Positions 1-64,000 are shown, counted from the stretch's first letter. The stretch: 64,000 nt of DNA from an uncultured Candidatus Saccharibacteria bacterium (GCA_964405805.1 CAYOPE010000001.1:4898-68897); one strand, 5' to 3'. Notes: generated by a model not told the origin, from the letters alone. Numbers and translations: made by a program.

Positions 1-831
1 GAGCACAAAAAAATTCTCGGCATTGAAAACATTGATAAAGTTATAAATATTGATCAATCACCGATTGGCCGCACTCCGCGGTCCAACCCAGCGACTTACA
101 CTGGTGTCTTTACATATATCCGTGACCTGTTTGCCGCTACCCCGGAGGCGCGCATGCGCGGGTACAAGGCTGGCCGGTTTAGCTTTAATGTCAAAGGCGG
201 CAGATGTGAAGTTTGTGGCGGCGATGGTGTGATAAAAATCGAAATGCATTTTTTGCCAGACGTGTACGTGGCTTGTGAAGAATGTAAAGGCAAGCGCTAT
301 AACAAAGAAGCTCTCGATATCCACTACAAAGGCAAAAATATTTCTGAGGTTCTGGAGATGACAGTGGATGAAGCGCATGTTTTCTTCCGCGCCGTACCCC
401 TCATTGCTCGCAAACTCGAAACACTTTCATTAGTTGGATTGGGTTATATGCACCTGGGTCAGCAGGCAACTACTCTCTCTGGCGGAGAAGCGCAGCGTAT
501 CAAGTTAGCAACTGAGCTTGCTCGTGCTTCCACTGGTCGCACACTCTATATTCTCGATGAACCAACAACTGGTTTGCATTTTGATGACGTAAAAAGATTG
601 ATGGGAGTTTTGTCGCGCTTGGTGGAGAAAGGAAACACAGTGCTAGTCATCGAACACAATCTCGATGTCATCAAGTCTGCGGACTGGGTAATTGACCTTG
701 GGCCTGAAGGTGGCAACAAAGGCGGCGAAGTGGTGGCAGTAGGCACTCCTGAGGAAGTAGCAAAGGTGAAGAGATCTTATACTGGTCAATATTTGGCTAA
801 GGTTTTAAAGTCATCAAAGATAAAAGCATAA
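1..831 (+). CDS. uvrA: Excinuclease ABC subunit A, C-terminal part (5' end outside window)
   Basis: Frame 1 is open from nt 1. Translation carries the UvrA C-terminal zinc finger (CEVCGGDGV...CEECKGKRY), ABC signature LSGGEAQR and Walker [11 protein letters not shown]. Confidence 0.9.
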
Positions 832-840
832 TTTTCTGTT

Positions 841-868
841 GTCACTTTTTTGGCAGCAAAAAAGTGAC
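841..868 (+). terminator. Perfect 11-bp-stem hairpin just after the uvrA stop
   Basis: gtcactttttt-ggcagc-aaaaaagtgac palindrome 10 nt after the stop codon. Confidence 0.45.
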
Positions 869-1089
869 AGAAAAAACTGGCGACACGGCAAAAATTATCC
901 AGAATTCTTAGCTCGCTTGTTCTCACATGCGGTTCAGAAATTGCCTAATCGGCAATTTTTCACCGCCACTGCTCGCGTCGAATTCTGACAAAATTTTTGC
1001 AAGTGTCGCGAAGCTCGAAAACCATCTTTATTCAACATTGACAAATGAGCTCAATTTTGTCATTTTAATATGACCATTAACCGAACTTT

Positions 1090-2448
1090 GTGTTTGATTT
1101 AAGACCTCGGAAACCAAATCTAAAGTACTCAGACAAACTGGCGAAAACTTTGAAGCAGCCCGTAGTACCGGCTTTGAAAGAAGACGAAACAACAGAGGTT
1201 GTTCCAGTTGAGCGAGTCAACCAAACTCAGAAAATTGTTGCTGAGAGCAAATTTAAAACTGAATTAGAAAAAGGTGCAAGCCTTTCAATTGTCAATTTGG
1301 TTCAGAGCTTGATTGATCTGGCTTACAGTCTGCATGTTTCAGACATCCACATTGATCCAGAGCTGGATGCAGTGCGCACCAGGTTTCGTATCGATGGCGT
1401 GCTGCAGGATGCTTCCGTTCTTCCAAAAAATATTCATGCCGAAGTCATTAGTCGTATAAAAATTTTGGCAGGCTTGCGCACTGATGAGCATCAGGTCGCG
1501 CAGGATGGCAGATTTCATATTCAGCTGACTTCTGGCTCAGCTGATGTCCGCGTCTCGATTGCACCGACTTATTATGGTGAAAACGCTGTGTTGCGACTGC
1601 TTTCTGATTCAGCAGAAGAATTCACTTTAGAAAGTCTCGGATTTAGCATTCCGAATCAGACGAAGATCATCAATGCCATTCGCAAACCTTATGGCATGAT
1701 TCTGGCCACAGGCCCGACAGGTAGTGGTAAGACCACGACTCTCTATACTTTGGTCAAGATGCTGAATACAAAAGAGACCTCCATCATCACGGTGGAAGAT
1801 CCGATCGAGTATGCCATCTCTGGCATCAATCAGATAGGCGTGAATAACCGCACTGGTCTAACTTTTGCCAATGGCCTGCGCTCGATTTTGCGTCAGGATC
1901 CGAATATAATTATGGTAGGGGAAATTCGTGACGCGGAAACTGCGGGGATTGCGGTAAATACGGCGCTCACTGGCCACTTATTGCTCTCGACTTTGCATAC
2001 TAACGATGCAGCCACGACTTTGCCCAGACTCCTGGACATGAAAATCGAACCATACTTGATTGCCTCTACTGTAAATGTGGCAATCGGCCAGCGACTAGTG
2101 CGCAAAATTTGCGAGCACTGCAAGCTACGCAAAAAATTGACCACCACTGAATCGCGAAGCTTTGCCGAAGTCCTGCCCATGAAAAAATTTCCAGCCAATG
2201 TCATGGTTTATCAGGGCCAAGGCTGCGAAGAATGTAATTTTTCCGGCTACAGAGGACGAATCGGCATTCACGAAGTGCTGGTGGTGGACAATCCGATTCG
2301 TGAAGCAGTGCTACGTAAAGCTTCTTCTGCAGAACTACGCGATATCGCGATTAGTTCTGGTATGACGACTATGGTCGAGGATGGCTTGGAAAAAGTTTTT
2401 AAGGGTGTGACTACGATTGCCGAAATTTTAAGAATGCTTCATGAATAG
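1090..2448 (+). CDS. pilB: Type IV pilus assembly ATPase (PilB/GspE family)
   Basis: Walker A GPTGSGKTTT, GspE-type Asp/His boxes and a C-terminal tetracysteine CEHC...CEEC. First gene of the pilus operon. Confidence 0.9.
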   Translation: MFDLRPRKPNLKYSDKLAKTLKQPVVPALKEDETTEVVPVERVNQTQKIVAESKFKTELEKGASLSIVNLVQSLIDLAYSLHVSDIHIDPELDAVRTRFRIDGVLQDASVLPKNIHAEVISRIKILAGLRTDEHQVAQDGRFHIQLTSGSADVRVSIAPTYYGENAVLRLLSDSAEEFTLESLGFSIPNQTKIINAIRKPYGMILATGPTGSGKTTTLYTLVKMLNTKETSIITVEDPIEYAISGINQIGVNNRTGLTFANGLRSILRQDPNIIMVGEIRDAETAGIAVNTALTGHLLLSTLHTNDAATTLPRLLDMKIEPYLIASTVNVAIGQRLVRKICEHCKLRKKLTTTESRSFAEVLPMKKFPANVMVYQGQGCEECNFSGYRGRIGIHEVLVVDNPIREAVLRKASSAELRDIAISSGMTTMVEDGLEKVFKGVTTIAEILRMLHE

Positions 2449-3487
2449 AATTACGCTGAAAGATCAGATAATTTTTGTTAAGCGCTTAGCTTTGATTGTC
2501 CGATCCGGAACCCCGCTCCTGCAAGGCTTGCAAATGCTCAACAGTCAAGCCGGCTCGAAAAAAATGGGCAAAATTTTGCCGCAAGTAATATATGATGTGG
2601 AGCATGGACAATATTTGGCAGTTGCGTTGGGCAGATTTAGAAAAATTTTCGGTGAATTTGCTATTAACATCATTGAAATCGGTGAAGTTTCAGGGACACT
2701 GCCGGAAAATCTGGATTATCTGGCAGAAGAACTCAAAAAGAAACAAACTTTGCGCCGCAAAGTCATCGGCGCTATGGTTTATCCGGTATTCATGGTCATT
2801 TCGACTTTTGGCGTCACGATTTTATTGACGATTTATTTGTTTCCGAAAATTTTACCAATTTTTAAGAGTGTGAATTTCAGTTTGCCCATTACTACACGTC
2901 TCCTGATTTTTATCAGCACCCTACTGATCAATCACGGCACGCTTTTTTTGATTCTGGCCATGCTTTTAGTCATCGTTTTTCTGCTGCTCATGAGAATTCC
3001 GCCTGTGAAATATTTGTATCAGAGAATTATGCTTTCTGTACCAGTGCTCGGTAACCTCGTTCAGACTTATAACCTGGCCAATATTTGTCGCACCCTCGGT
3101 CTGCTGCTAAAAAGTAATGTCGCGATCGTGCGCACGACCAAAATTACTTCACGCACGACCAATAATTTGGTTTATCAAACTCATTTGGGCGAGATAGCGG
3201 AGACACTTACTAAAGGCGGCCAGATTTCTGACTATATTCAAATGCATACACAGGTATTTCCGACGATTCTCACGCAAATGGTGACTATTGGTGAGCGCAC
3301 AGGAAACCTCAGTCACACTTTTTTGTACCTGGCCGACATGTATGAAGCTGAAGTGGATGAAACCACGAAAAATTTGTCCACGATTTTAGAGCCTATACTT
3401 CTGGTCCTCATGGGACTTATGGTAGGCTTTGTGGCGATTTCTATAATTACACCGATTTATGGCCTCACGCAGAGACTACACCCGTAA
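2441..3487 (+). CDS. pilC: Type IV pilus inner-membrane platform protein (PilC/GspF family)
   Basis: Two GspF-like repeats with TM segments. 8-nt overlap with the pilB stop. Confidence 0.85.
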   Translation: MNRITLKDQIIFVKRLALIVRSGTPLLQGLQMLNSQAGSKKMGKILPQVIYDVEHGQYLAVALGRFRKIFGEFAINIIEIGEVSGTLPENLDYLAEELKKKQTLRRKVIGAMVYPVFMVISTFGVTILLTIYLFPKILPIFKSVNFSLPITTRLLIFISTLLINHGTLFLILAMLLVIVFLLLMRIPPVKYLYQRIMLSVPVLGNLVQTYNLANICRTLGLLLKSNVAIVRTTKITSRTTNNLVYQTHLGEIAETLTKGGQISDYIQMHTQVFPTILTQMVTIGERTGNLSHTFLYLADMYEAEVDETTKNLSTILEPILLVLMGLMVGFVAISIITPIYGLTQRLHP

Positions 3488-3953
3488 AAATGCAAATGGA
3501 TTCACATTAGTTGAAGTCCTGATTAGCATAGGAATTTTGGGTTTGATTGCCGGTCTCGGTCTTTTTATTAGTTTTGATGTGTATCGACATGGCACTTTCC
3601 ACTCTGAACAAGGCGAGATTGTCAGCATTTTACAAAAAGCCAGAAGTCAGTCCATAAATAATATTGATCAAGTAAGACACGGGGTGCATTTTCAATCCAA
3701 TCCTTTAACTTACATTTTATTTGAATGCCCGTCAGGCACTCCACAATGCTCAAGCTATACTGCAAGTAGTTCAGATGTCTCTGTGACTGCTTCCAATAAC
3801 GTTTCTGTCACCAGTACTTTGCCCATGGATATAATTTTTTCGCAGCTAAGTGGGGATTGTATCAGCTGCGTGAGCGCGCAAACCCTAACTGTGAACAATG
3901 GGCCGAGCACCAACAGCATTACTATTAACAGCGAAGGGCGGATTGATGATTAG
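3459..3953 (+). CDS. Prepilin-type N-terminal cleavage/methylation domain protein (minor pilin-like)
   Basis: N-terminus ...KNANG|FTLVEVLISIGILGLIAG has the class III signal peptide motif G-FTLxE. Overlaps the pilC 3' end; leader is unusually long (14 aa). Confidence 0.6.
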   Translation: MASRRDYTRKNANGFTLVEVLISIGILGLIAGLGLFISFDVYRHGTFHSEQGEIVSILQKARSQSINNIDQVRHGVHFQSNPLTYILFECPSGTPQCSSYTASSSDVSVTASNNVSVTSTLPMDIIFSQLSGDCISCVSAQTLTVNNGPSTNSITINSEGRIDD

Positions 3954-5388
3954 AAATTCTGAAGACGGTGTGGCGACACTAGAAATTTTGATTGCTATGA
4001 CTATCATCATCTTGGCTGTGTCAGCCGTGATCGTCGTAGTGTTTAGTGGTCAGTCGTTTTCTGTTGACTCGCAAACTGATCAAGACGCACTCTATAAAAA
4101 CCAAACTTTACTTGAGACCGCGCGAGCCAATGCTTCAAAATCAGTGAGTTTAGTTTCTAGTCAAACTATTTCTGATCCGTTTTATTCTGGCAATCTTTCT
4201 GCTTCGGATCTAAATGTGGACGTGAGCAAACTGGTGAGCACAGCGCTGAACTGGCATACAGATGTCAGGACCCAGGCCATGGCTTCGGAGACAATTGTGG
4301 TGGATCTGAAAGCGGCACTGGGCAGCAGTGGCTGTAGTAATACGGTATCATCTGGCTGGTCCAATCCTACAATTTTAAATCCTTCGCATACGATTGATAT
4401 TGATCCGGATACATTGACGGGTATGACCTATGCTAACAATGTCGTTTATATTACCGGCAATCATTCTTCTGCGAGCAAGGACGATTTTTATACAGTAGAT
4501 GCATCTGATCCAACTTGGCCGAAGCTATATCCGAACGGACATCTAAACACGGGTCCTGGATTGGCAGCGGTCGTGGTTGCTGGGCATTACGCTTATGTAG
4601 CGAATACGAGCACCACAGCCCAGCTGCAGGTGATAGACGTCACAGATCCAGCTAATCCAGTTTATCTGTCCAGTGCCAACAGACAAGTTGCCAGTACGCA
4701 TTCGAGTGTGGGCAATTCTATTTATTATTACAAAAATACCGTGTATTTAGGGCTCACAGCCCATGGCTCAGAACCGCAGTTTGCGATTTTTGACGTAACG
4801 ACTCCGACGAATCCCATAGCAAAAGGAACATATAACCAAATCGGTCATGATGTAAATTCGATCCGAGTTAAAGACGATTACGCTTATGTTGCCAGCCCAG
4901 CTAATGAGAATATGACAATTTTAAATATTAGCAATCCGAATAGTCCGACCAGGGTCGGTGGTTTTACTCCGACGGCGCTGCCAGACAGTAATGGTGTCGG
5001 TTCAAATTACGGCGAGAGTCTATTTGTGACTGGTAACACAGCGTACCTCGGCAGAACTTATGGCACGAATGAATTTTATGTACTCAATGTAAGTACTCCA
5101 GGAAATGTTTCGGTTTCCAATAGCGCTGACTTTGGAAGCGGGAATCAAACCAGTATTAACGGAGTTATCGTTAGATCGAATTTGGTATTTACTACTACCA
5201 ATTCTGTGTTTCAAGTGCGTCAGCTATCGAATCTTAGTAGCGTATTTGGCTCTTTGACATTATCAAGCACTTCTCCTACAGGTGATTTTAATTGTAATGG
5301 TAATGTTCTGTATGTGGGAGTGCTCGGACCGAGTGGTACAAGCGGCCATGATGTCCTAAAAATTATCGGTCCAGGAGCAGGCCCATGA
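3946..5388 (+). CDS. Large pilin-like protein with LVIVD-type beta-propeller repeats (putative pilus-associated adhesin)
   Basis: Start MIRNSEDGVATLEILIAMTIIIL... is pseudopilin-like (GxxTLEI + hydrophobic helix). Body holds >=5 repeats of YAYVA(N/S)...L.V.DV(S/T).P..P (LVIVD repeat pattern). ATG overlaps the previous stop. Confidence 0.65.
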   Translation: MIRNSEDGVATLEILIAMTIIILAVSAVIVVVFSGQSFSVDSQTDQDALYKNQTLLETARANASKSVSLVSSQTISDPFYSGNLSASDLNVDVSKLVSTALNWHTDVRTQAMASETIVVDLKAALGSSGCSNTVSSGWSNPTILNPSHTIDIDPDTLTGMTYANNVVYITGNHSSASKDDFYTVDASDPTWPKLYPNGHLNTGPGLAAVVVAGHYAYVANTSTTAQLQVIDVTDPANPVYLSSANRQVASTHSSVGNSIYYYKNTVYLGLTAHGSEPQFAIFDVTTPTNPIAKGTYNQIGHDVNSIRVKDDYAYVASPANENMTILNISNPNSPTRVGGFTPTALPDSNGVGSNYGESLFVTGNTAYLGRTYGTNEFYVLNVSTPGNVSVSNSADFGSGNQTSINGVIVRSNLVFTTTNSVFQVRQLSNLSSVFGSLTLSSTSPTGDFNCNGNVLYVGVLGPSGTSGHDVLKIIGPGAGP

Positions 5389-5879
5389 TTGATCAAAGAA
5401 AACAACAAGGTTTTACATTACTAGAGACCGTGGTTTATCTCGGTTTGTTTGCCATAGTCATTGGCGGCGGTATGATTGCCACGTATGAGATCATTCAAAG
5501 TTCAGGCAAGGTGAGTAATCAGGCCATGGTATCAGAAGAGGCGAATTTTTTGCTGTCAAAAATTAATTGGGGGCTATCTGGCGCTACTGCCATTAGCATT
5601 CCATCTTCCACGACATTAGTAGCGACGAAAATCATCAATTCGATTTCCACGAATTTAACTTTTACTCTTTCTGGGAGCAATTTAACCCTGCAACGCGGCG
5701 CCAATACCGCTCAAATCCTAAATTCTAGTAATGTCACAGTGTCGAATTTAAATTTTACAAATATTCCAGCAAGTGGCGGCATTCCGCAAGGTGTTACTAT
5801 GAGTCTCACGATAACTTCGCGAGGATCTGGTGGCGTAGTTAGCCGCGATTTTTCTACTACTAAATATTTACGTCAATGA
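5385..5879 (+). CDS. Prepilin-type N-terminal domain protein (pseudopilin)
   Basis: MIDQRKQQG|FTLLETVVYLGLFAIVIGG; 4-nt overlap with the upstream gene. Confidence 0.6.
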   Translation: MIDQRKQQGFTLLETVVYLGLFAIVIGGGMIATYEIIQSSGKVSNQAMVSEEANFLLSKINWGLSGATAISIPSSTTLVATKIINSISTNLTFTLSGSNLTLQRGANTAQILNSSNVTVSNLNFTNIPASGGIPQGVTMSLTITSRGSGGVVSRDFSTTKYLRQ

Positions 5880-6262
5880 AACAAGAAGGATTTGTCGCAT
5901 TAATTTCTGCCATTGTGATTTCTGTCCTACTTTTAGCCATTACTTTTAGCGTGGGCTTTTCGTATTTCTTTGCGCGATTTAATGTCTTAGATTCTGAATC
6001 CAAACAGCGGAGTCTAGGCTTGGCAGAAGCGTGTCTGGACCAAGGCACTCTAGATCTAATAACTAACACTACTGTGACAAGCCCAGTCACAGTCGGCTCG
6101 GAGCAATGTACCATCGTCTCAGCTGTCTTGGCTAGCAACCAGAACACGGTTGTGGCTACAGCTGTAGTCAACCGCGCTTACACCACAGTAAAAATGGTTA
6201 GTAACGCGACCACTGCTGCGATTATTTCTTGGAAAGAATGTGAAAATACTAGTACTTGCTAA
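5876..6262 (+). CDS. Pilin-like small protein (hydrophobic N-terminal helix after a Gly)
   Basis: MKQEG|FVALISAIVISVLLLAITFS; translationally coupled within the pilus operon. Confidence 0.5.
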   Translation: MKQEGFVALISAIVISVLLLAITFSVGFSYFFARFNVLDSESKQRSLGLAEACLDQGTLDLITNTTVTSPVTVGSEQCTIVSAVLASNQNTVVATAVVNRAYTTVKMVSNATTAAIISWKECENTSTC

Positions 6263-6310
6263 GCGTGTCCAAAGCTGCTATAAATATAATCACTAATTAA
6301 TCAAGGATTT

Positions 6311-6799
6311 ATGTTTAAAAACTTTAAGAAATCCCAAAACGGGTTCACCCTGATTGAAATCTTGGTGGTCATGGGGATCATTGCTGTTTTGGCTGCAATT
6401 GTCGTAATTGCTATCAACCCAGCTAGACAGTTTGCGCAAGCCAGAAACACGCAGCGATCCAGTGATATCAATACCATATTGAATGCCATCGGACAAAACG
6501 TAGCAGACAATAAAGGTACGCTAACTTGCGCGAGTATTGTGACTGCCATACCAGTTTCTCCAACTGCAGCAAACGATATTGGTACTGGAGGAGTCGCAGA
6601 TGTAAACTTGAGCTGTCTTACGCCAACGTACATTGCTGGCGGAGTTCCTATGGATCCTTCAGGCGGAACCGCTGGAGACACTAAGTACACGATCCAGCAG
6701 GATACGGTAGCCAATGGTTCGAGATATATAGTATGTGCACCTAATTCGGCGGAAACTGCAATCGTTCCAACTCCAGCAGTCCTCTGTGTTACTCGTTAA
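6311..6799 (+). CDS. pilA: Type IV pilin (likely major pilin, PilA-like)
   Basis: MFKNFKKSQNG|FTLIEILVVMGIIAVLAAIVVIAINPARQ is a canonical type IVa pilin N-terminus. Last gene before a strong terminator. Confidence 0.75.
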   Translation: MFKNFKKSQNGFTLIEILVVMGIIAVLAAIVVIAINPARQFAQARNTQRSSDINTILNAIGQNVADNKGTLTCASIVTAIPVSPTAANDIGTGGVADVNLSCLTPTYIAGGVPMDPSGGTAGDTKYTIQQDTVANGSRYIVCAPNSAETAIVPTPAVLCVTR

Positions 6800-9066: not shown

Positions 9067-9606
9067 ATGATTCGAAAGATTCAGATTGGTGTCATGGGAA
9101 GCGCAGCAGATTTGGGTTACACCGAAGCTGTGGCCAAGCTCGCTGAAGAAATCGGCAGGGAAGTGGCGCTGGCGGGTTGCACGCTAGTGTTCGGTGCTGA
9201 GAAAGACTGCGACTCACTCTCCACAGCGGCTGGCCGTGGTGCGCGTTCCGCCGGAGGTCTGACAGTTGGCATCACTTACGGCAAGGGTTTGGCAGTGTTC
9301 GATGATGCTGATATCATCATTGCCACTGGACTCGAGCGCGGCGGTGGCCGGGAATTCGTGTTGGCTCTTTCGTGCGATGCGATCATCGCCATCAGCGGTG
9401 GCAGTGGCACTCTCACCGAAATGGTGATCGCGTATCAAGCCAACATCCCGGTCATCGGCATCTACGGCTGCGGCGGCTGGAGTCAGAAGATGTTCGGGGA
9501 GGCGTTTGATACCCGCCGACCACATCTAGCAATTCGGGGTGCTACCAAAGCGAGGCAAGCGGTGGAGTTGGCATTGGCTGCAATTCAAGCAGCAGTAAAG
9601 ATTTAG
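9067..9606 (+). CDS. LOG/TIGR00725-like Rossmann-fold nucleotide-binding protein (SLOG superfamily)
   Basis: RBS AGGAGG precedes ATG. Contains GIYGCGG, ...AIISGGSGTLTEMVIAY (PGGxGTxxE-like LOG motif) and an N-terminal IGVMGSA glycine loop. Confidence 0.65.
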   Translation: MIRKIQIGVMGSAADLGYTEAVAKLAEEIGREVALAGCTLVFGAEKDCDSLSTAAGRGARSAGGLTVGITYGKGLAVFDDADIIIATGLERGGGREFVLALSCDAIIAISGGSGTLTEMVIAYQANIPVIGIYGCGGWSQKMFGEAFDTRRPHLAIRGATKARQAVELALAAIQAAVKI

Positions 9607-9615
9607 ATTCATTGA

Positions 9616-9650
9616 GATCAGGAGAGCGCGAGCTCTTCTGATCTTTTCGT
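9616..9650 (+). terminator. Rho-independent terminator
   Basis: gatcaggagagc-gcga-gctcttctgatc followed by ttttcgttt. Confidence 0.7.
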
Positions 9651-9805: not shown

Positions 9806-10540
9806 GTGAGACAGTTGTTTGAAAATGTCGCGTCTCGTCCAGCACACGTGGGGCCGAGGAAAGCCTGGATCATCTCGGTCACCACTGTCATCTACGCAGC
9901 GATCGGCGGAGCATTGCTCATCGCTCCGTTGTGGGCGACGAATGTTCTACCCGCCGTCGACAAGGTGCTCGAGTGGGAGGCCCCGCCGAAGCCTCCGGTG
10001 CCGGTCAAGATCAAACGACCGGACAGGCCGAAGAAGGACCCGAAGTCGGGTGGAACCACGTCGAACGATCCGGAGCCACGAGTGCCGACGAAGCCTCCGG
10101 ACGACATCAAACCAGAGCCGCCCGGACCACGACCTGGCCCTCCCGGACCCGGACCGGATCCCTGTCCTGGGTGTCTGGAAGTCGATGTACCGAGAGGACC
10201 GATACCCGAGCCACCACCGCCACCCAAGCCACCGGATCCGCCGAAGCCGGAACCGCCGACGCGGCTACCGCCCAGTGTTAGGCAGCCGGTGAAGATCGCC
10301 GATGTACTGCCAATCTATCCGGATGGAGCGAAGAATGCGCGTGTGCAGGGCGTGGTCATTCTCGAAGCCGTGATCAGCTCGGACGGCAGGGTACAGGATG
10401 TCAAAGTCCTGCGTTCGATCCCGCTGCTCGACAGGGCTGCGATGGATGCAGTTCGGCAGTGGCGGTACACGCCCACACTCCTCAACGGCGTACCAGTGTC
10501 AGTGATCATCACGGTCACGCTCAACTTTACCCTGCAGTAG
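9806..10540 (+). CDS. TonB family protein (N-terminal TM anchor, Pro-rich spacer, TonB C-terminal domain)
   Basis: GTG at 9806 follows AGGAGG. Spacer ...KPPVPVKIKRPDRPKKDP...PEPPPPPKPPDPPKPEPP; C-terminal ...VQGVVILEAVISSDGRVQDVKVLRS...AMDAVRQWRYTP. ~62% GC. Confidence 0.7.
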   Translation: MRQLFENVASRPAHVGPRKAWIISVTTVIYAAIGGALLIAPLWATNVLPAVDKVLEWEAPPKPPVPVKIKRPDRPKKDPKSGGTTSNDPEPRVPTKPPDDIKPEPPGPRPGPPGPGPDPCPGCLEVDVPRGPIPEPPPPPKPPDPPKPEPPTRLPPSVRQPVKIADVLPIYPDGAKNARVQGVVILEAVISSDGRVQDVKVLRSIPLLDRAAMDAVRQWRYTPTLLNGVPVSVIITVTLNFTLQ

Positions 10541-10625
10541 TAAGCAGGGGTCTGCCCGAGGCTCGCTCGCATCTGTGCGACGAGCCCCGGAATTTTTTGC
10601 ACAAAAAAACTGGCCTGTCTGGCCA
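10530..10625. terminator. Cluster of three GC-rich hairpins (bidirectional terminator region)
   Basis: ccctgcagtagtaagcagggg (spans the TonB stop), ggctcgctcgcatctgtgcgacgagcc + TTTTTT, and ctggcctgtctggccag + TTTT. Confidence 0.55.
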
Positions 10626-10881: not shown

Positions 10882-10961
10882 GTGTTTGCTTTCTTGCCGC
10901 CATTACTAGTGGTCATATTATTCTAAAACCGCAGAAAAAGTTTGTCAAAGGTAAAAAGAAA

Positions 10962-10998
10962 AGCCGCACCCTGCTGAAAGACAGCAAGGGTGCGGCGT
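10962..10998 (-). terminator. Long hairpin with T-run on the minus strand
   Basis: gccgcaccctgctg-aaaga-cagcaagggtgcggc. On the minus strand it is followed by TTTTCTTTTT, downstream of the 11028-11525 gene. Confidence 0.55.
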
Positions 10999-11027
10999 TT
11001 TCGCGCGGGGTGCGGTTGGCACCGTCG

Positions 11028-11525
11028 TTATTCGGAGTGGCCGTGATTCGGCTCGGGCGAGGGTTTCACGCCCGGAGCGTTAACGCGGTGCTTCTCGCCG
11101 CGAATGTTCACGGGATCGAGTTCGAGCAGGCTCACCTGCATTCCGTCGACCTTGATCTTGTCATCCAGCGCGAGGACAACGAACAGCTGGCATTCCTGAT
11201 CGCTATAGAGATACGTTTCGATCAGCTCGCGGTAGATATCACGGACGGCGCCCAGGGCTCGCTTGAAGTCCTGTCCCGAGCGGCTGTCGTTGACGGAAAC
11301 CTTACTGAGCGTCACTTCGACGCCCCAGGCCCCGGCCCTGTCAGAAGTCGGGATACTGAGATCCGTCATCTGGACATAGTGAGTTGCCGGTCCATAGGAA
11401 GCACGATCGACGTGCAGATGCGGAACCGCGACTCCCTCGCGGAATGCGTCTGCGACGTACGAGCTGTCGAGAGCCACGAGGAAATCCTCGGGCATGCTGG
11501 CCGTTGCAACCGCCTTCAGTTTCAC
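11028..11525 (-). CDS. Hypothetical protein (GC-rich)
   Basis: GTG start 5 nt after AAGGAGG on the minus strand. The opposite-strand ORF lacks an RBS. No family recognised. Confidence 0.6.
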   Translation of the reverse strand: MKLKAVATASMPEDFLVALDSSYVADAFREGVAVPHLHVDRASYGPATHYVQMTDLSIPTSDRAGAWGVEVTLSKVSVNDSRSGQDFKRALGAVRDIYRELIETYLYSDQECQLFVVLALDDKIKVDGMQVSLLELDPVNIRGEKHRVNAPGVKPSPEPNHGHSE

Positions 11526-43890: not shown

Positions 43891-43958
43891 TTTGCTAGTT
43901 TTTGTTTGTGGACGCTATAATGCATAAGTCAACCGAGACTCCGAGTTGGAGTTCTCAC

Positions 43959-46201: not shown

Positions 46202-46798
46202 GTGACCGAAGCTGTGATCTTTGACTGCTGCGAAGTACTCTTAACCGGAGTTAAGGGTTGCTACGAGCAGTTCGGAAAACTGCTCGGAACCGATCCTGCG
46301 ACTGTGAAGTCTCGCCTCATGTGCGACATGGCTATGCGTCTGTTTTCCGGCCAGGCCACAGAAGAGGAGTATTGGACTGATGTCATCCGGCGTTCAGGCT
46401 GGACTCACGATAGTAAAGTCTTGGGCAAGCAGCTGCGCCGAAGCTTTCGAGAGATCCCAGGTACACGCAATCTCATCCGAGCCATGCGACGACAGGGATA
46501 CAAAACCGGTCTGCTTTCAGTGCACGCCCGCGAGTGGGTCGAGTACTGTCAGAGGCGCTTTCGTCATCACTGTCTGTTTGATGTGGTGCACTACTCGTAC
46601 CAGTTCCAACCGTCCAAACCGCATCCAGAATCGTTTGTGAATCTGGCTGCGGCACTGGGCGTCAGTATCACCAACTGCGTGGTCGTGGATGACCGCGCTG
46701 AAAATATCATTGCGGCCAGGACCCTGGGTGCCCAAGGGGTGATTTTCGAAACTGCTGAGCAGACAGAAGCAGAACTGTTTTCCCTGCTCAGACTCTAA
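46202..46798 (+). CDS. HAD-superfamily hydrolase-like protein
   Basis: GTG after GAGGAGG. AVIFDCCEVLL (motif I-like, second Asp replaced) and VVVDDRAENI (motif IV). Confidence 0.55.
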   Translation: MTEAVIFDCCEVLLTGVKGCYEQFGKLLGTDPATVKSRLMCDMAMRLFSGQATEEEYWTDVIRRSGWTHDSKVLGKQLRRSFREIPGTRNLIRAMRRQGYKTGLLSVHAREWVEYCQRRFRHHCLFDVVHYSYQFQPSKPHPESFVNLAAALGVSITNCVVVDDRAENIIAARTLGAQGVIFETAEQTEAELFSLLRL

Positions 46799-46815
46799 CT
46801 GACGAGGAGTGTGAC

Positions 46816-48114
46816 ATGACGACTAAGTTTGTTCGAGGCGAGAAGGTGGCCGAAGGCAAGACCAAGGTGATTTACGCAGACGAGAACGACCCGACCGGCG
46901 CCATCGTCTTTTCCAAGGACGATCTGACAGCCGGCGACGGCAAGCGGCACGAGGTCTTCGATGGCTTCGGCGCACTGTCGAATCTGACGACGATCAACAC
47001 ATTCAGCCTGCTCCGCGCCTGCGGCATCCCGGTGGCGTTTCGCGAGAAGATCGATGACAGGACGCTCTCAGCGGATCTGACAGACATGATTCCGCTCGAA
47101 GTGGTGACGCGTCGCGAGGCGCACGGCTCGTTCCTCAAGCGCCATCCGTACCTGAAGCGCGACCACTACTTCCCGCGCCTCGTCTTCGAGCTGTTCCTGA
47201 AGACATCGGGAAAGAAGTGGAAGGAACACAATCTGCTCTGCGACGATCCTTACATGGACTACACGTCGCGACAGGAGCAGGGTTTGGTCGGGTTGTTCTT
47301 GCCCGATCAGCCCCTCTGGTCGCAGCCTTCACCTATGCATGTGGTGAACAGTTCTGAGATCGAAGGGTTTGAGCGCCTGCAGGAGATCGAGGAGATCACC
47401 AGAAAGGTCACCCTCGTCCTGGACAAGGCGCTGCAGATGGTCGGGATCAGGTTCGCGGACATGAAGATCGAGTTCGGAATCACGAAAGATGGCCGACTCG
47501 TGGTCTCAGACGTGATCGACAGTTCGTCGTGGCGGATCGTGGGACCGGACGGGAAGTACATCGACAAACAGCTGTTTCGAGACGGAGCCGAGGTTCCAGT
47601 CATGGCGCAGGTTTTCGCCCGAGGGCTCGAGATCACAAGCCGGTTTCAGGTGCCACCGAAGCAGCAGATCGTCATCTGGACCGGCTCACCGAAGGACGAG
47701 GTCTCGAAGTTCAAAGAGTGGTTGGAGAGTCATCCTCTGCCAATCCAAGTCGTGTATGTGGCCCTGTCCGCGCACAAGCAGCCTGTCCTGGCCGTTCAGA
47801 AGCTCCAGCAGCTCGTGCAGATGACGCCGGACACAGTGGTGGTGGCGTTCATCGGCCGATCCAACGGCGCCGGCCCCACGCTCTCCGGTGCAGTCAGTGT
47901 GCCTGTCCTGACTGTGCCGGCGGACTTCCAGAAAATGCCGGAAGATGTCTGGTCGAGTTTGCGCACACCGAGTGACGTGCCAGTCTCGACCATGCTGGAA
48001 CCCGGGAATGCCCTGCTTCAGGCGGTCCAGATCTTGGCGATGCGCAATCCGCAGCTATATATGGAGCTGCGTCATCGACAGGAAGATCGCCTGAGCAACT
48101 TCGCGCTGCTGTAG
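46816..48114 (+). CDS. purC: Bifunctional PurC-PurE fusion (SAICAR synthetase N-terminal, AIR carboxylase/PurE-like C-terminal)
   Basis: N-terminal ...GEKVAEGKTKVIYADENDP...VFSKDDLTAGDG... is PurC-like. The C-terminal 150 aa (LSAHKQP, GRSNGAGPTLSG, VPVLTVP, NALLQAVQILA) parallel PurE motifs (SAHRTP, AGGAAHLPG, VPVIGVP). Confidence 0.7.
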   Translation: MTTKFVRGEKVAEGKTKVIYADENDPTGAIVFSKDDLTAGDGKRHEVFDGFGALSNLTTINTFSLLRACGIPVAFREKIDDRTLSADLTDMIPLEVVTRREAHGSFLKRHPYLKRDHYFPRLVFELFLKTSGKKWKEHNLLCDDPYMDYTSRQEQGLVGLFLPDQPLWSQPSPMHVVNSSEIEGFERLQEIEEITRKVTLVLDKALQMVGIRFADMKIEFGITKDGRLVVSDVIDSSSWRIVGPDGKYIDKQLFRDGAEVPVMAQVFARGLEITSRFQVPPKQQIVIWTGSPKDEVSKFKEWLESHPLPIQVVYVALSAHKQPVLAVQKLQQLVQMTPDTVVVAFIGRSNGAGPTLSGAVSVPVLTVPADFQKMPEDVWSSLRTPSDVPVSTMLEPGNALLQAVQILAMRNPQLYMELRHRQEDRLSNFALL

Positions 48115-48204
48115 AGCAGTTCGACGACGGGCGCGCGAAAGTCACGGGCGGGGGCGATTGTTTATCAGGTTCTTCTGAACCTGACAAGCTTCGCTCCCGA
48201 TTTT

Positions 48205-55894: not shown

Positions 55895-55958
55895 GCTCCC
55901 GTTGACTGGGAGCTGTTTTTTTGCTATGCTGATTGGCCACAAAGGCAGGAGGATTTCC

Positions 55959-56240
55959 ATGGCTCAGATTTCGGCAAAGGTCAGGGCGCAGGACAGTCCG
56001 GAAACGGCCCGCACGGTGTTGGACGAGCTCGAGGGCACGATGCGATTGTATCGATCGATGACCCTTACCGTGCTGGGCAGGATTTCTCTGGTGATGGCCG
56101 GAGAGATCCACCGAGAAACAGCGGATCGACTCGCGGAGAAAGGGAACGACCCAGTGGTGATTACCCGGATCGAGTCGCTCGACCACTTGCTCGTGACAGT
56201 CCGGTGCAGCGCCGCGGAAGTGACGCTGCTCAAGGAGTAA
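55959..56240 (+). CDS. Hypothetical protein in a small GC-rich cassette
   Basis: ATG after GGCAGGAGGAT; followed by GC-rich terminator 56272-56304. Confidence 0.45.
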   Translation: MAQISAKVRAQDSPETARTVLDELEGTMRLYRSMTLTVLGRISLVMAGEIHRETADRLAEKGNDPVVITRIESLDHLLVTVRCSAAEVTLLKE

Positions 56241-56271
56241 CCAACAAGCTCGATTCGTCGGCTCGACTTCA

Positions 56272-56304
56272 CAGGCGGGGGCGCGTGTCGCTCCCGCCTT
56301 TTTT
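56272..56304 (+). terminator. GC-rich rho-independent terminator
   Basis: ggcgggggcgcgtgtcgctcccgcc-tttttttatt. Confidence 0.7.
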
Positions 56305-58059: not shown

Positions 58060-59544
58060 ATGAATCTAACCAAATCCAAAATTTTTTTGATCCTTTGCTT
58101 GGGCTTCATTGTGGGCATTGCGATCGGGCGATTCATAAGTTATCAAATCATGGCTGTGTGTGCCATGATTTTTATAATTGTTGCCACAGTCAATTGGCCA
58201 AATAGAATTGCTGCGGTTGTGGGAATAGCCGGGCTTGTTTTATTGCTCGGCGCTGTTAGATTTAAGACGAATTTCGCGCAGAATGATCTTGCGGCATATT
58301 ATAACCAGAAAGCCGAAGTGATTGGTGTGATCAGTGAAGAACCAGACGAACGGTCAGACAAAGTTTATCTGACTTTGGGCGATCTTGAGATCAATGGAGC
58401 GAAAAAACAGTCGAAAATTTTGCTAACTGTGAATTTGTATCCCAAATACGAGTATGGCCAGAAGCTGAAGTTCACAGCCAAGATCACTGAGCCAAAAGAA
58501 TATACAGATTTTTCCTACAAAAATTATTTATCGCGCTTTGGCATTGACGCAGTCGTGTATTTGCCGAAAATCGAAGTTGTGGACGGCCAGTTTGGTAATT
58601 CTATCAAGCTTGGCATCTTGCGTTTGAAGCAGAAATTTGTGAAAGCCCTCGGCAATGTCCTACCAGAACCACAGAACGCATTTCTTGGCGGCTTGCTTTT
58701 GGGAGCCAAAAGGCAAATCCCGAAAGAGCTGTCAGATCAATTTAGTAAAACAGGCACGTCACATATTGTCGCTATCTCTGGCTACAACATCACGATCATT
58801 GCCGGCGGCATCGAATGGCTACTGGCTTGGTTTGGCGTGCGAAAAAGGATTTCATTTGGCATTGCGATCATAGCGATCGTCGGCTTTGTAGTTATGACTG
58901 GCGCTTCTGCTTCTGCGGTGCGCGCGGGCATCATGGGCATTTTACTTTTACTGTCTCTGAATGTCGGCAGAGTAAGTGTGGCAGCGAATGCATTAGCATT
59001 TACCGCAGTGGTCATGCTTCTGATCAATCCGCAAATTCTGGCTTTTGATGTGGGCTTTCAGTTGTCATTTGCTGCGCTGATAGGAATTATCTATTTAGTG
59101 CCACTGATTGAACCGTATTTTTTGTGGCTGCCAAATTTTCTAAGCGCTCGGCAATATTTTTTAGCGACTCTCGCTGCCCAAATTTTTACTTTGCCGATCC
59201 TGGTCTATAATTTCGGCCAGCTTTCACTCGTCTCACTGCTCCCAAACATTCTAGTCCTACCCACAGTGCCAGCTGCCATGCTGTTTGGATTTATCACGGG
59301 ACTCATGGCTATGATTTGGGCCAAGCTTGCGTACTGGGCAGCCGGGATTACGTGGTTGATCCTGACTTACATTCTGAAAGTTATTGGATTTTTTGCGCAT
59401 CTGTCATTTGCCTCAGTCTCGATTCACGTCAATTTTTGGTGGGTCGTCTGTTATTACTTGCTTTTGAGTCTAATTTTTGTTAAACTTAGTAGGCAAAAGG
59501 AGGCCGACGCGCTAGCGTTGGCAAAACACGAAAATGAGTTTTAA
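58060..59544 (+). CDS. comEC: ComEC/Rec2 family DNA internalization channel (no C-terminal beta-lactamase domain)
   Basis: Competence domain ...[16 protein letters not shown]... with 10+ TM segments. Confidence 0.85.
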
Positions 59545-61255: not shown

Positions 61256-61352
61256 AATCTTGAGCAGTCCTGAGAAATCAGAGCTGTTTTTGTTTTGACA
61301 CAGGTTGCGTTTCGCGATAATATAAATAGCCGATTTCGGCAGGAGGATACCT

Positions 61353-61628
61353 ATGGCACGGATACAGCGAGACCCCCAGCGCAGCACGATCATCTTGGCG
61401 ACAGTTGTCGTCAAGGGTGGCAAGGGCCGACAGGCTGTGGCCTTCAACGTCGGGTCAGAAGACATCGAGAAAGCCAAGAAGGAACTCGCGGCCGCGGCTG
61501 ACGCGGACGGCAACATGCTCTGTCTCAGCGAAATTCCGATTTGGACCGGTGACGCGGTTGCCTCGTATCGTGAAGTCGTTGGTCGCTTGGTCACCAAGCA
61601 CGTCGTGGCCAAGCAGTCGGCCGCATAA
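61353..61628 (+). CDS. Hypothetical protein (GC-rich cassette gene 1)
   Basis: ATG after GGCAGGAGGAT, the same RBS context as 55959. Confidence 0.4.
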   Translation: MARIQRDPQRSTIILATVVVKGGKGRQAVAFNVGSEDIEKAKKELAAAADADGNMLCLSEIPIWTGDAVASYREVVGRLVTKHVVAKQSAA

Positions 61629-61641
61629 CGAAGGAGGTCTC

Positions 61642-61947
61642 ATGCACTTTGTGGCCATCGTGAGCTTCAATCTGCCGCACAGAACCGGGGTTGGAGTCAG
61701 TCACACCAAGGCTTTCCTGGCAGAAAGCCGTCCGATTGCGCAGTTCTTCGTCGAGCAGTTCGCCAGACTGCTTCGGGAAAAGGAGGGGTCAGTCACTCAT
61801 TTTTCTGTGGTCGGTGCTGTCCACGAGCTGATCCCTATCGACAGCACTACTGATGTGCCGGCTCTGGTCCAGAGAATTGTGGACGAGCTCGTGGAGGAAC
61901 GCCGGAAAGAGGTTGCGAGATCACGTCAGGAATACCTGCGCGACTGA
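61642..61947 (+). CDS. Hypothetical protein (GC-rich cassette gene 2)
   Basis: ATG after GAAGGAGG; ends before GC-rich terminator 61960-61996. Confidence 0.4.
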   Translation: MHFVAIVSFNLPHRTGVGVSHTKAFLAESRPIAQFFVEQFARLLREKEGSVTHFSVVGAVHELIPIDSTTDVPALVQRIVDELVEERRKEVARSRQEYLRD

Positions 61948-61959
61948 TACTCCGAGTTT

Positions 61960-61996
61960 CCAAGAGGCGGGACGCCTTGCGTCCCGCCCTTTTCTT
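61960..61996 (+). terminator. GC-rich rho-independent terminator
   Basis: ggcgggacgccttgcgtcccgcc-cttttcttttg. Confidence 0.7.
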
Positions 61997-62021: not shown

Positions 62022-62939
62022 ATGCCTGAATTACCTGAGGTCGAAACCGTGGTTTCTGAACTGCGGTCGAAGCTGAGAAATAAGAAAATAAAAGAAGTCA
62101 GGGTGCTGCTGCCGAAAATGGTCGCAATCGGTCCGCATACTTTACCCAATCTGAGACGGACCGATTCGCAGACAGCAGCAGACTTTGCGCGGACACTGCG
62201 GAATCAGAAAATTTCTGGTGTTTCTCGTCGTGCTAAAATGATTATCATTGATCTTGCAGGTAAGTACGCCATCTTGGTCCATCTTAAGATGACGGGCCAA
62301 CTGATTTTTTTCGACAAAAAACATTTGGACAAGCAAATCAAGCTTTTGAATATTGAAAACACGAAAGCGGTCCACCTGCCTGCCAAGTCCACGCATGTAA
62401 TTTTTGATTTTGCGGATGGATCGAAACTTTTTTACAATGACTTTCGGCAGTTTGGGTATCTGAAATTGGTCACAGATAAAGAATTGTCACAGGTTTCGGA
62501 GCTGCAAGGCTATGGACCAGAGCCTTTGGCCGCAAATTTCACGTACGTGAAATTTGCTGAACTGCTGAAGAAGAGATCCAACGCGCTGATCAAGCCGTGG
62601 CTTATGGATCCCACGATCATCGCAGGCATCGGCAACATTTATTCTGACGAAATTCTGTATTTTGCCAAAGTCCGGCCAGACAGACGAGTGAAAAGTTTGT
62701 CTGGGACTGAGAAAAAATTGGTTTTCAAAGGCATAAAAAAGATTTTGCAGGATGCAGTAAATCATTACGGCTCATCAGTCGGGGACTTTGTCAGACCCTC
62801 AGGCGACTGGGGCACGTATGGTCTTCTTCATAAGGTTTACGGCCGCGCCGGGGAAAAGTGTAAAAGATGTGGTACTATAATAAAGAGCATGAAATTTAAT
62901 GGCAGGACGGGTTGCTACTGCCCGCGAGAACAGAGGTAG
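62022..62939 (+). CDS. mutM: Formamidopyrimidine-DNA glycosylase
   Basis: MPELPEVETVV N-terminus (catalytic Pro2/Glu3), H2TH region, C-terminal zinc finger CKRCG...CYCP. Confidence 0.9.
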   Translation: MPELPEVETVVSELRSKLRNKKIKEVRVLLPKMVAIGPHTLPNLRRTDSQTAADFARTLRNQKISGVSRRAKMIIIDLAGKYAILVHLKMTGQLIFFDKKHLDKQIKLLNIENTKAVHLPAKSTHVIFDFADGSKLFYNDFRQFGYLKLVTDKELSQVSELQGYGPEPLAANFTYVKFAELLKKRSNALIKPWLMDPTIIAGIGNIYSDEILYFAKVRPDRRVKSLSGTEKKLVFKGIKKILQDAVNHYGSSVGDFVRPSGDWGTYGLLHKVYGRAGEKCKRCGTIIKSMKFNGRTGCYCPREQR

Positions 62940-63021
62940 GTTCCTCCCCTAGAATAGGGGAGGTTAGGAGGGGTAGATTCCAGGATCTACCACCCCCAGC
63001 CCCTCCTATTCTAGGAGGGGA
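62939..63021. repeat. 85-nt palindromic GC-rich element R2 (supplies the SD for the 63031 ORF)
   Basis: Differs from R1 (12586-12672) at only 2-3 positions. Confidence 0.85.
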
Positions 63022-63030
63022 GAAAAAACC

Positions 63031-63375
63031 ATGCAAGATGATAAATGGGAAGCGCTAAAAGAAGAATTGAAACGCAAGTTCAAAGTCGAAGATCAGCACT
63101 TTGAAGATTTGATTACGTCCACTGCGGATGGGCCAGTTATTTCTGGCAAGGTCGAAGTGATTATCTTCGAAACTCCCATGGGTAAGATCAAACTTGTGCG
63201 TGAAAGCAAACCCGTGGTCCTGGGCAAAAAAGAATTCTACAGTCATCAGCAGGGAAAAGCCGCCAGGACTGAGTACCAATTTTCAGACACAGAATTTTCT
63301 CACAAGATCAAAGCATATAAATTAGATGATGAAGACGAATGGAAGGAGATGGATGCTGCAGCATTTGGAAATTAA
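63031..63375 (+). CDS. Hypothetical protein
   Basis: ATG 8 nt after GGAGGGGAGA, which is contributed by repeat R2. Confidence 0.5.
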   Translation: MQDDKWEALKEELKRKFKVEDQHFEDLITSTADGPVISGKVEVIIFETPMGKIKLVRESKPVVLGKKEFYSHQQGKAARTEYQFSDTEFSHKIKAYKLDDEDEWKEMDAAAFGN

Positions 63376-64000
63376 GGAAAATCAGAAACAAAAGTTAGCA
63401 GAGGCGATTGTTTCAACTCTAGTTTTTTTCAGTTTGTATAATTTACCTCTCTCTTCGCGTCGCGTTTTTGAACTACTGCTCGGAACTAGATCTACGCAAG
63501 CAGAAGTCGATGAGATGTTGAATTTTTTGGCAGTAAATAATCTCATTTTCACTCAGAATGGTTTGTTTGCGCTGAAAAAATGGGACGCAGCAGTATATAA
63601 TGCCAATCAACTAGAGCTCACGAAAAAATGGCAGAAGATTGATCGCTATTTTTCTTGGCTTGCGGTTCTACCATTTGTCCGCCAGATCTCAGTGATCAAT
63701 AGCTTGGCCCTAGGCACGGCTGACAGCGACTCAGACATTGATTTTTTGGTCATCACTAATCCTGGTCGGCTGTACTTTGTGCGATCAATCATCATTGTCC
63801 TGTTTCGCTTGCTCGGGGTTTACAAAACACGACAAAAAATCAAAGACAGATTTTGTTTTGGCTTTTTTGTCTCAGAGAGAAAACAAGATCTACACGAGCT
63901 ATTGTTGAAACCTCAAGATCCGTATTTGGTTTTCTGGCTGGCAAACATGCGACCGATACTTGGTCGGCAAGCATACGAGCACTTTATGCAAGAAAATGCT
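63353..64000 (+). CDS. Nucleotidyltransferase-domain protein (3' end outside window)
   Basis: ORF open to the window end; ...NSLALGTADSDSDIDFLVIT... is a minimal nucleotidyltransferase (GS-x9-DxD) motif. Confidence 0.5.
   Translation, partial: MLQHLEIKENQKQKLAEAIVSTLVFFSLYNLPLSSRRVFELLLGTRSTQAEVDEMLNFLAVNNLIFTQNGLFALKKWDAAVYNANQLELTKKWQKIDRYFSWLAVLPFVRQISVINSLALGTADSDSDIDFLVITNPGRLYFVRSIIIVLFRLLGVYKTRQKIKDRFCFGFFVSERKQDLHELLLKPQDPYLVFWLANMRPILGRQAYEHFMQENA

Follow-up and report, generated by a model that had tools for sequence, protein, structure and literature searches.

GC-rich gene cassettes between the core operons of a Candidatus Doudnabacteria chromosome and their probable origin by repeated horizontal acquisition

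Bacteria of the candidate phyla radiation (CPR, or Patescibacteria) have very small genomes and rely on other cells to supply their nucleotides. How a chromosome of this kind comes to carry small GC-rich gene cassettes between its housekeeping operons is the question raised by a 64-kb stretch of DNA deposited as an uncultured Candidatus Saccharibacteria bacterium (GCA_964405805.1, CAYOPE010000001.1:4898-68897), the whole of which, positions 1 to 64,000, we call the window. By its sequence affinities the window is a chromosomal segment of Candidatus Doudnabacteria, a CPR lineage; its FtsZ is 85% and 81% identical to those of two Doudnabacteria metagenome-assembled genomes. We consider it likely that the cassettes were acquired repeatedly by horizontal transfer into intergenic slots, plausibly by the route of natural transformation and without dedicated capture machinery, which would make the window a dense case of ordinary gene transfer.

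Seven GC-rich islands in a 44% GC backbone

Around an overall GC content of 46.9%, the GC content of 400-nt intervals has a standard deviation of 0.060, against 0.025 ± 0.001 in shuffled sequence, and 39 such intervals reach at least 55% GC where 0.23 would be expected from the shuffles. A two-state hidden Markov model (HMM) run on single bases divides the window into a backbone of 44.4% GC and seven high-GC segments (9096-10590, 10963-11694, 20567-21616, 31490-32530, 41538-48156, 55935-56298 and 61337-61989) with a mean of 57.9%, which sum to 11,954 nt or 18.7% of the window; a sliding GC profile agrees with this segmentation. The original prediction, which spoke of at least ten GC-rich blocks in a backbone of about 38-40% GC, was right about the mosaic, too low in its backbone and too generous in its count: the HMM recovers its blocks at 9806-10540, 11028-11525, 20580-21700, 31480-32590, 41470-48120, 55959-56304 and 61353-61996, and the three others lie at 47-49% GC. 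These are 6994-7752 (49% GC; GC content at third codon positions, GC3, 0.46), ~13150-13440 (47-49%), where a small minus-strand open reading frame (ORF) between two hairpins does exist, and the greater part of 8321-9606, in which high GC (57%) is reached only by the SLOG gene at 9067-9606 and not over 8321-9057 (48% at 8518-9057).

None of the 27 syntenic core genes is GC-rich (44.1 ± 2.8%), and the island genes stand 3.6-7.9 standard deviations above them. Codon-position values in the island genes follow the order GC3 > GC1 > GC2, with GC3 at 0.59-0.82, and the excess of GC3 over GC2 fits real coding sequence from a GC-rich source. At the cassette boundaries GC3 steps by 0.2-0.35 and the edges are sharp. 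The dinucleotide signature departs from that of the backbone as well, with a relative-abundance distance between islands and backbone (delta*) of 125 ×10^-3; measured from the 6.6-kb island, each of the small islands lies at 62-77 and size-matched backbone pieces at 152-171, at most 1% of these being as close. The foreign look ascribed to the blocks by the original prediction is thus upheld by gene GC and dinucleotides alike. Hairpins of the form GGCGGG...CCCGCC-T occur four times in islands 5-7 against 0.06 expected, and in neither the backbone nor the relatives. Judged by sequence composition, this shared signature fits a single donor lineage or a single gene pool, though what GC-rich coding sequences have in common generally might account for part of it.

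The density of cassettes is as unusual as had been claimed. With a second parameterisation of the HMM, which was also applied to 101 comparison loci, the high-GC load of the window is 16.5%, against a median of 0 and a 90th percentile of 6.6% in the comparison loci, only three of which exceed it; among the loci with any island, the nearest relatives appear more often than their share.

The islands and their cassettes are as follows.

9067..9645, plus strand: island 1a, SLOG cluster-4/LOG-like gene, 179 aa, 57% GC (Pfam PF18306, E 1.4e-27), terminator hairpin 9614-9645
9806..10592, plus strand: island 1b, TonB-like gene, 62% GC (Pfam PF03544, E 2.1e-22), terminator 10553-10592 (dG -23.7)
10959..11525, minus strand: island 2, gene for a 165-aa protein, 60% GC, GC3 0.72, terminator 10963-10997
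20567..21690, minus strand: island 3 (HMM segment 20567-21616, 55% GC), two small genes, 20783-21079 (98 aa) and 21325-21639 (104 aa, signal peptide), with an AT-richer spacer between them
31490..32579, plus strand: island 4, tight run of small ORFs (73/77, 38, 55, 72 and 64 aa), 58% GC, closing hairpin 32543-32579
41503..48200, plus strand: island 5, 6.6 kb, 57.6% GC, four terminator-capped units
41503-42135 and 42323-43822, plus strand: island 5 unit 1, upp and a radical-SAM protein gene, terminator 43851-43882
43977-44456, plus strand: island 5 unit 2, gene for a 159-aa protein, terminator 44502-44531
44621-46102, plus strand: island 5 unit 3, purB, terminator 46122-46146
46202-46798 and 46816-48114, plus strand: island 5 unit 4, HAD hydrolase gene and purC-purE fusion, terminator ~48146-48200
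55935..56298, plus strand: island 6, one orphan gene for a 93-aa protein (55959-56240), 60% GC, GC3 0.76, terminator 56274-56298
61337..61989, plus strand: island 7, genes for 91-aa (61353-61628) and 101-aa (61642-61947) proteins, 59% GC, terminator 61966-61988

Each cassette has a Shine-Dalgarno site ahead of a single complete ORF or a few of them and closes at its 3' end with a strong stem-loop and T-run; it is lodged after the terminator of one core gene and before the promoter of the next. In island 1 an AT-rich spacer containing promoter-like sites divides the SLOG unit from the TonB-like unit. The TonB-like gene is full-length, with a membrane anchor, a proline-rich spacer and a TonB_C domain (244 aa in the gene call on L171, one of the contigs listed below). 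Island 3 is flanked by the RAYT gene and a D3 hairpin (both described below) on one side and by tRNA-Lys on the other, and island 4 lies between a conserved noncoding RNA (ncRNA)-like element and pth.

Proteins identical to those of the window are recorded on an 88,975-nt NCBI contig and in Logan assemblies of run SRR12313479. The junctions of the blocks were reproduced by this second assembly, seven of whose contigs span junctions and match the window at 100% identity:

7623-11847: L171
20545-21878: L170, whose left end stops at a repeated hairpin
27658-34099: L085, spanning island 4
39120-42775: L001
43975-48119: L082
52553-57113: L086
60525-62731: L087

Twelve of the 14 island junctions fall inside them (islands 1, 2, 4, 6 and 7 at both ends, island 3 on the right and island 5 on the left), and the interior of island 5 is also reproduced. 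Because a second assembler yields the same junctions at 100% identity, the blocks are very unlikely to be chimeras, and mis-assembly, which the original prediction had named as the outcome that would overturn it, is largely excluded. We also set aside a chimera of two related Doudnabacteria differing in GC content, since high GC is absent from every core gene and the changes in composition lie between genes and not within shared ones.

Contents of the slots in the window and in its relatives

The backbone is typical of CPR bacteria, with a type IV pilus cluster, hrcA-grpE-dnaK-dnaJ, topA, dprA, pth, der, ftsA-ftsZ, nrdR-nrd, hisS, comEC and mutM, and the orders dprA-pth-der-...-ftsA-ftsZ and nrdR-nrd-...-hisS-comEC-...-mutM are kept in relatives. 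Five slots, that of island 3 not being among them, were compared in ten loci of relatives (L002, L003, L006, L008, L083, L089, L092, L093, L100 and L169). At all five the relatives have either nothing or different genes, which are mostly GC-rich too, and no gene of at least 54% GC has a syntenic ortholog of at least 75% identity in them, with the exception of SLOG. This gene, the only island gene syntenic in a relative, is common to the window and L169 (77% nucleotide identity, 56% GC), where dnaK and uvrA are 79% and 80% identical in nucleotides to those of the window. Between SLOG and hrcA, L169 lacks the TonB-like, 81-aa and 165-aa genes and has in their place unrelated cysteine-rich genes, one of 85 aa (58% GC) and one of 101 aa (56% GC). 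The dprA|pth slot, 1,319 nt long in the window, measures 275 nt in L008 with only the ncRNA-like element and a terminator, and contains a CYTH-like ORF in L006.

The ftsZ|nrdR slot, which holds island 5, is the most varied in content. In many relatives nrdR follows ftsZ after ~1-2 kb, and none of 80 relatives has the island 5 genes of the window downstream of ftsZ. The closest relatives have other GC-rich nucleotide genes here: L002 has pyrF (58% GC), and L003 combines a phosphoribosyltransferase gene (55% GC) with a pyrF (61% GC) that shares only 35% identity with the one in L002. L089 (L089:2-1027) has a homolog of the radical-SAM protein with 48% identity in a segment of 58% GC. In L083 the slot holds genes for a type-2 orotidine monophosphate decarboxylase and a phosphoribosyltransferase as well as purB and purCE, the products of the latter two being 50% and 59% identical to those of the window; immediately downstream of this group comes an nrdR whose product is 80% identical. 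That PurB and PurCE are 50-59% identical though NrdR is 80% identical indicates replacement rather than simple descent. A uniform GC content of the same genes in relatives would have spoken against a foreign origin: purB and purCE of L083 do come near to uniformity with their surroundings, but L083 as a whole has 53-57% GC.

The two remaining slots show the same turnover. DUF167|hisS is empty in L089 (140 nt) and L092 (59 nt); in L093 it holds a different 136-aa ORF of 57-60% GC with its own GC-rich terminator, beside a HisS 74% identical to that of the window, and still other inserts occur in L100 and L091. The ndk|mutM slot is empty in L092 (215 nt), and in L100, where MutM is 79% identical, it carries a two-gene cassette of 49-53% GC on a 43% backbone; the second of these genes, a 96-aa ORF, is 33% identical (E 3e-8) to the 101-aa protein of the window. 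Taken with SLOG, this homolog of the 101-aa gene shows that some cassettes are old.

Several further observations concern the same neighborhoods. The dprA-pth spacer harbors the conserved ncRNA-like element of ~120 nt (window 31335-31455, plus strand; L008:575-700; L006:860-985), whose long closing stem shows compensatory changes when the window is compared with L008, and one hairpin of which has an invariant 13-nt loop, CAUCCCUCCUAUU, that resembles an anti-Shine-Dalgarno sequence; it matches no Rfam family even at E up to 1, and island 4 is inserted just 3' of it. Upstream of mutM, L089:14118-14714, L092:4777-5355 and L100:14887-15471 contain a ~195-aa gene that reads by eye as nucleoside-diphosphate-kinase-like; the gene in its place in the window (60188-61255, 40% GC) encodes 355 aa, is unrelated and contains an adenylate-kinase domain, which looks like a non-orthologous replacement at backbone-like GC. 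The grpE|dnaK spacer is another variable slot, with a ~45-aa membrane-protein ORF between two hairpins in the window (13224-13361, minus strand) and an unrelated 108-aa ORF of 35% GC in L169 (8105-8431). Between uvrA and a trpR-like gene the window has the type IV pilus cluster (5.7 kb, 1090-6800) and a 252-aa gene (6994-7752); in L169 (1404-4668) both are absent and the trpR-like gene directly follows uvrA, so that a large block of backbone-like GC is variable too. Islands of 52-66% GC on backbones of 43-48% also occur in other Patescibacteria (L009:512-3182, L011:2524-4770, L005:1974-5954 and L026:18733-20667), several of them encoding large secreted proteins. Beyond the islands, the window contains low-GC outlier genes (33-37% GC) that were absent from the blocks listed in the original prediction:

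10636-10881: low-GC outlier
17748-18122: CAAX protease
19878-20501: RAYT gene
24637-25308: lycopene-cyclase-domain protein

Pfam searches confirm the gene content originally reported for the islands (upp, purB, purC-purE and small proteins of no assigned family). Nucleotide metabolism accounts for the SLOG/LOG-like gene, upp, purB, the HAD hydrolase gene and the fused purC-purE; the remaining cargo consists of the TonB-like gene, the radical-SAM gene and about ten small proteins. In the PurCE fusion (46816-48114) a SAICAR_synt domain at the N-terminus is joined to an AIRC domain at the C-terminus, as in the PAICS-type SAICAR synthetase/AIR carboxylases; it differs from their named bacterial members in being only ~50% identical to them and in occurring in a CPR genome together with purB. 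Going by these domains, PurCE and PurB together would convert 5-aminoimidazole ribonucleotide (AIR) to 5-aminoimidazole-4-carboxamide ribonucleotide (AICAR); no other de novo purine genes were seen within the window. Relatives of PurCE were found at 73%, 59% and 56% identity, at least one of them in a Doudnabacteria-like context, followed by hundreds of fusion proteins at ~50% identity whose named members are mostly from Verrucomicrobiota; the best 120 homologs listed all carry the fused architecture. Upp has thousands of matches at 67-72% identity in protein searches, and its tblastn matches in plasmids reach at most 52% identity in scattered taxa and are uninformative as to the donor. TonB_C is a domain typical of diderm bacteria. 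The radical-SAM protein (499 aa, cysteine-rich) has a borderline match to the Radical_SAM domain (E 1.4e-6) and none to an equivalog.

The small proteins are mostly orphans. In an exhaustive phmmer search of 1.84 billion representative proteins, seven of them (104, 73/77, 55, 72, 93, 91 and 101 aa) matched only themselves, the 98-aa protein had ~6 distant homologs and the 159-aa protein a handful, also distant; six small gene calls match singleton clusters in a collection of 15 billion proteins. None of the small island proteins belongs to a meaningful NCBIfam family. The 165-aa protein represents a conserved family of ~65 homologs of roughly 145 aa, with identities of at most 48%; the contig of one of these homologs is 2 kb long and offers no informative neighbors. 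Its AlphaFold model (pLDDT 95) weakly matches the tautomerase superfamily (E ~2e-3, TM 0.4-0.5), a resemblance of fold too weak for any function to be assigned.

Possible routes of acquisition

The window itself encodes the components through which DNA could have entered the cell:

1090..6799, plus strand: type IV pilus/pseudopilus cluster with PilB ATPase, PilC platform and pilins (Pfam T2SSE, E 9e-118; T2SSF; N_methyl)
30131..31276, minus strand: dprA (Pfam DNA_processg_A and WHD_DprA, on the Logan gene call)
58060..59544, plus strand: comEC (Pfam Competence PF03772, E 2.3e-53, and DUF4131)

ComEC is the channel for DNA import, and DprA loads RecA on incoming single-stranded DNA. Natural transformation is plausible because the pilus genes, ComEC and DprA are all present. 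We picture core operons of 44% GC separated by variable intergenic slots, seven of which would have received cassettes of 55-61% GC. Environmental or host DNA would be taken up by natural transformation via the type IV pilus, ComEC and DprA, and whole transcription units would become fixed in permissive intergenic slots, through illegitimate recombination or else through homologous exchange in the conserved sequence on either side. The contents of a slot could later be swapped between related strains by homologous recombination in the flanks, which would also explain the turnover of cassettes between such strains. The source would be a GC-rich gene pool, perhaps a diderm neighbor or host, and part of the cargo may serve to patch the nucleotide economy of the recipient through the LOG-like hydrolase, upp, purB, the HAD phosphatase and the fused purC-purE. 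Chromosomal hot spots of horizontal gene transfer, in which intervals between core genes hold different accessory genes in each strain, often without mobility genes, have reportedly been described by Oliveira et al. in 2017. The window resembles them in having a few core-flanked intervals with differing accessory genes, which fits homologous recombination in the flanks; it differs in that the pattern is seen at five slots in a handful of distant relatives (56-88% protein identity) and not within a species.

Several observations weigh against this account. The transformation route is deduced from which genes are present, and recurrent replacement from a GC-rich pool is likewise something that we infer. 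SLOG, common to L169 at a divergence like that of the backbone, still has 56-57% GC, and its GC excess is partly a matter of amino-acid composition (GC2 0.51); the 101-aa gene has its 33% identical homolog at the corresponding position in L100. Since relatives too have GC-rich genes in these slots, recent, unameliorated foreign DNA cannot explain everything. No donor was found, the best non-self identities being 73% for purCE, ~70% for upp and at most 50% for the rest, and seven small proteins lack any homolog in the phmmer search. As to the assembly, the terminal 37 nt on the right of island 5 lie beyond the reach of the Logan contigs, which derive from a single run, possibly the very reads of the source contig, and carry no coverage information.

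A variant of this scenario is that the slots are refilled recurrently with terminator-capped mini-cassettes from one GC-rich pool, perhaps the DNA of a diderm host, by an unrecognised and semi-targeted process that acts, for instance, beside terminator hairpins. We regard it as unlikely; if it were true, the cassette signature would be a fingerprint of the host and the process a cellular counterpart of the acquisition of morons by phages.

Delivery by phages of the CPR bacterium, or descent of the cassettes from other mobile elements such as prophage morons or decayed islands, seems to us similarly improbable. A phage moron consists of one or more ORFs with a terminator and sometimes a promoter, inserted between two conserved genes, and phage GC content usually tracks that of the host. 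The cassettes share with morons, a concept of Hendrix and Juhala, the autonomous ORFs with a terminator between conserved genes, the deviant GC content and the patchy distribution; they differ in lying on a cellular chromosome between housekeeping operons with no phage genes nearby. This moron-like architecture, the many small orphan proteins, which are typical cargo of phages and mobile elements, and the position of one island beside a tRNA gene and a transposase speak for such an origin, as does the GC-rich island of the non-syntenic L026, one ORF of which reads by eye like the N-terminus of a tyrosine integrase. Viral transfer has, moreover, been proposed for Patescibacteria (PMC12455944). 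However, Pfam scans of nearly all ORFs of at least 80 aa in the window detected no integrase, phage, capsid or terminase gene and no tyrosine or serine recombinase; the small island proteins match no PHROG family at E <=0.01; and the radical-SAM and PurCE proteins have no relatives in IMG/VR. On general grounds, phages with a host-like GC content would not explain an excess of 14 points, and island 3, next to tRNA-Lys and RAYT, is the only one associated with a tRNA or mobility gene, a link that is classical for genomic islands though not obligatory.

Less probable again is a dedicated system of cassette capture, either integron-like or based on an HUH/Y1 transposase acting on hairpins, in which the 3' hairpins would be the sites of recombination. 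The original prediction leaned this way when it took the hairpin repeats for candidate junctions and the frequency of cassettes for the sign of a systematic acquisition mechanism; neither proposal found support. Its observation that the blocks are bounded by GC-rich hairpin terminators stands for the 3' end of most cassettes. A strong GC-rich hairpin closing every cassette, together with the four GGCGGG-type hairpins of islands 5-7, is what such a system would lead one to expect, and several slots are reused in relatives. Yet the left and right ends of the islands share no sequence beyond chance matches of 11-14 nt (blastn-short), no GGCGGG-type hairpins accompany the cassettes of relatives, and the stem-loops, which lie at gene 3' ends and are followed by T-runs, have the look of intrinsic terminators. 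A ribosome-binding site, GGCAGGAGGAT, is common to the cassettes of islands 6 and 7; the claim that many genes start at sites of this type was overstated, for the exact 11-mer occurs only twice, at 55944 and 61338, and with one mismatch allowed at least two matches arise in 25 of 100 shuffles, so that the match is not significant by itself. The cassettes recall those of integrons in being small, mostly single-gene units that end in an imperfect palindrome. They differ in that the window has no IntI or attI and no integrase domain in the scanned ORFs, in that the cassettes are dispersed over 52 kb and not arrayed (no attC covariance model was run), and in that their hairpins are T-tailed, lack conserved core sites and share no sequence beyond the GGCGGG stems in four cases.

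The transposase that could be invoked for capture does exist. A RAYT/IS200-like Y1 transposase at 19878-20501 (34% GC; PF01797, E 1.7e-10) is the only mobility gene of the window. It is flanked by identical copies of the palindrome TGGAGGGCGCCCCTCCA at 19879-19895 and 20508-20524, an arrangement that, with the repeated intergenic hairpins, resembles the systems of repetitive extragenic palindromes (REPs) and their RAYT transposases. However, TGGAGGGCGCCCCTCCA occurs nowhere else in the window and is unrelated to the island hairpins. After RAYT stands a 46-nt hairpin repeat, D3, with copies at 18123, 19016 and 20529. The recurring repeats (D1, D3, D4 and D8) belong, unlike the islands, to the 44% GC backbone, and only one copy, the third of D3 (20529-20574), touches an island edge.

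Two tandem paralogs for secreted proteins (18191-18958 and 19074-19799, both on the minus strand) do not differ in their signal peptide and have in common a 133-nt repeat with 99% identity; neither has a Pfam match. Several families of repeated intergenic palindromes, like REPs or miniature inverted-repeat transposable elements, stand just after core genes (hrcA, mutM, dnaK, nrdR and others) and are part of the backbone and not of the islands.

12588-12672 and 62941-63025: 85-nt composite palindrome, two copies 99% identical, with a partial copy at 26135
26543-26586 and 58002-58045: repeat pair
26451-26483 and 54673-54705: repeat pair
15317-15397 and 50156-50227: repeat pair

We give as little credence as to a capture system to the view that the islands consist of vertically inherited Doudnabacteria genes in which biased gene conversion at recombination hot spots, amino-acid composition or selection has driven up the GC content locally. 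It draws on SLOG, which is syntenic in L169, diverges like the backbone and has a high GC2, on the GC-rich genes in the same slots of relatives, and on L083 with its purB and purCE at near-uniform GC beside a well-conserved NrdR. Against it, whereas core proteins on the flanks keep 74-88% identity in close relatives, the genes found in the same slot are for the most part unrelated, or else only 33-59% identical; the GC3 jump is large and sharp at the cassette boundaries; the dinucleotide signature differs too; and TonB_C is out of place in this lineage. Least credible of all is a mis-assembly or binning chimera in which DNA of a GC-rich organism was joined to a Doudnabacteria contig: the source is indeed a metagenome-assembled contig and L082 ends at 48119, near the right edge of island 5, but the identical contigs of the second assembler cover 12 of the 14 junctions, syntenic core genes stand on both sides of each block, the inserts are whole genes placed exactly within intergenic spaces, and the same kind of insert occurs in relatives from other samples.

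Relation to known islands and biological meaning

That Patescibacteria, Doudnabacteria among them, contain genomic islands and laterally transferred genes is already known (PMC12455944; PMC8407418). Gios et al. (2025) found that islands and horizontal transfer make up as much as 13% of Patescibacteria genomes, nucleotide-metabolism genes included, and pili and competence were proposed as the route of gene gain (PMC12455944); Nicolas et al. (2021) described the lateral transfer of a cyo operon into soil Doudnabacteria (PMC8407418). The window agrees with the published islands in its streamlined genome, its compositionally deviant acquired segments, its nucleotide-metabolism genes and the candidate route by pili and competence. 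It differs in its local load, 16-19% of 64 kb as against 'up to 13%' of genome length, in the small size of most islands (0.4-1.5 kb, one or two genes), and in that these are GC-richer than the backbone and occupy slots that are reused with other cargo in relatives.

For genome annotation the lesson is one of caution, as islets this small would be missed by predictors tuned to large regions bearing integrases. Genes transferred into bacteria are usually AT-richer than the recipient, and the window shows the unusual direction, with DNA that appears acquired and is GC-richer. The common signature of all the islands may offer a handle on their donor or on the host of these episymbionts. About a fifth of these 64 kb looks foreign, a dense patching of a CPR genome that sits in a few reusable slots between conserved operons, and one of these slots, between ftsZ and nrdR, is enriched for nucleotide metabolism across relatives.

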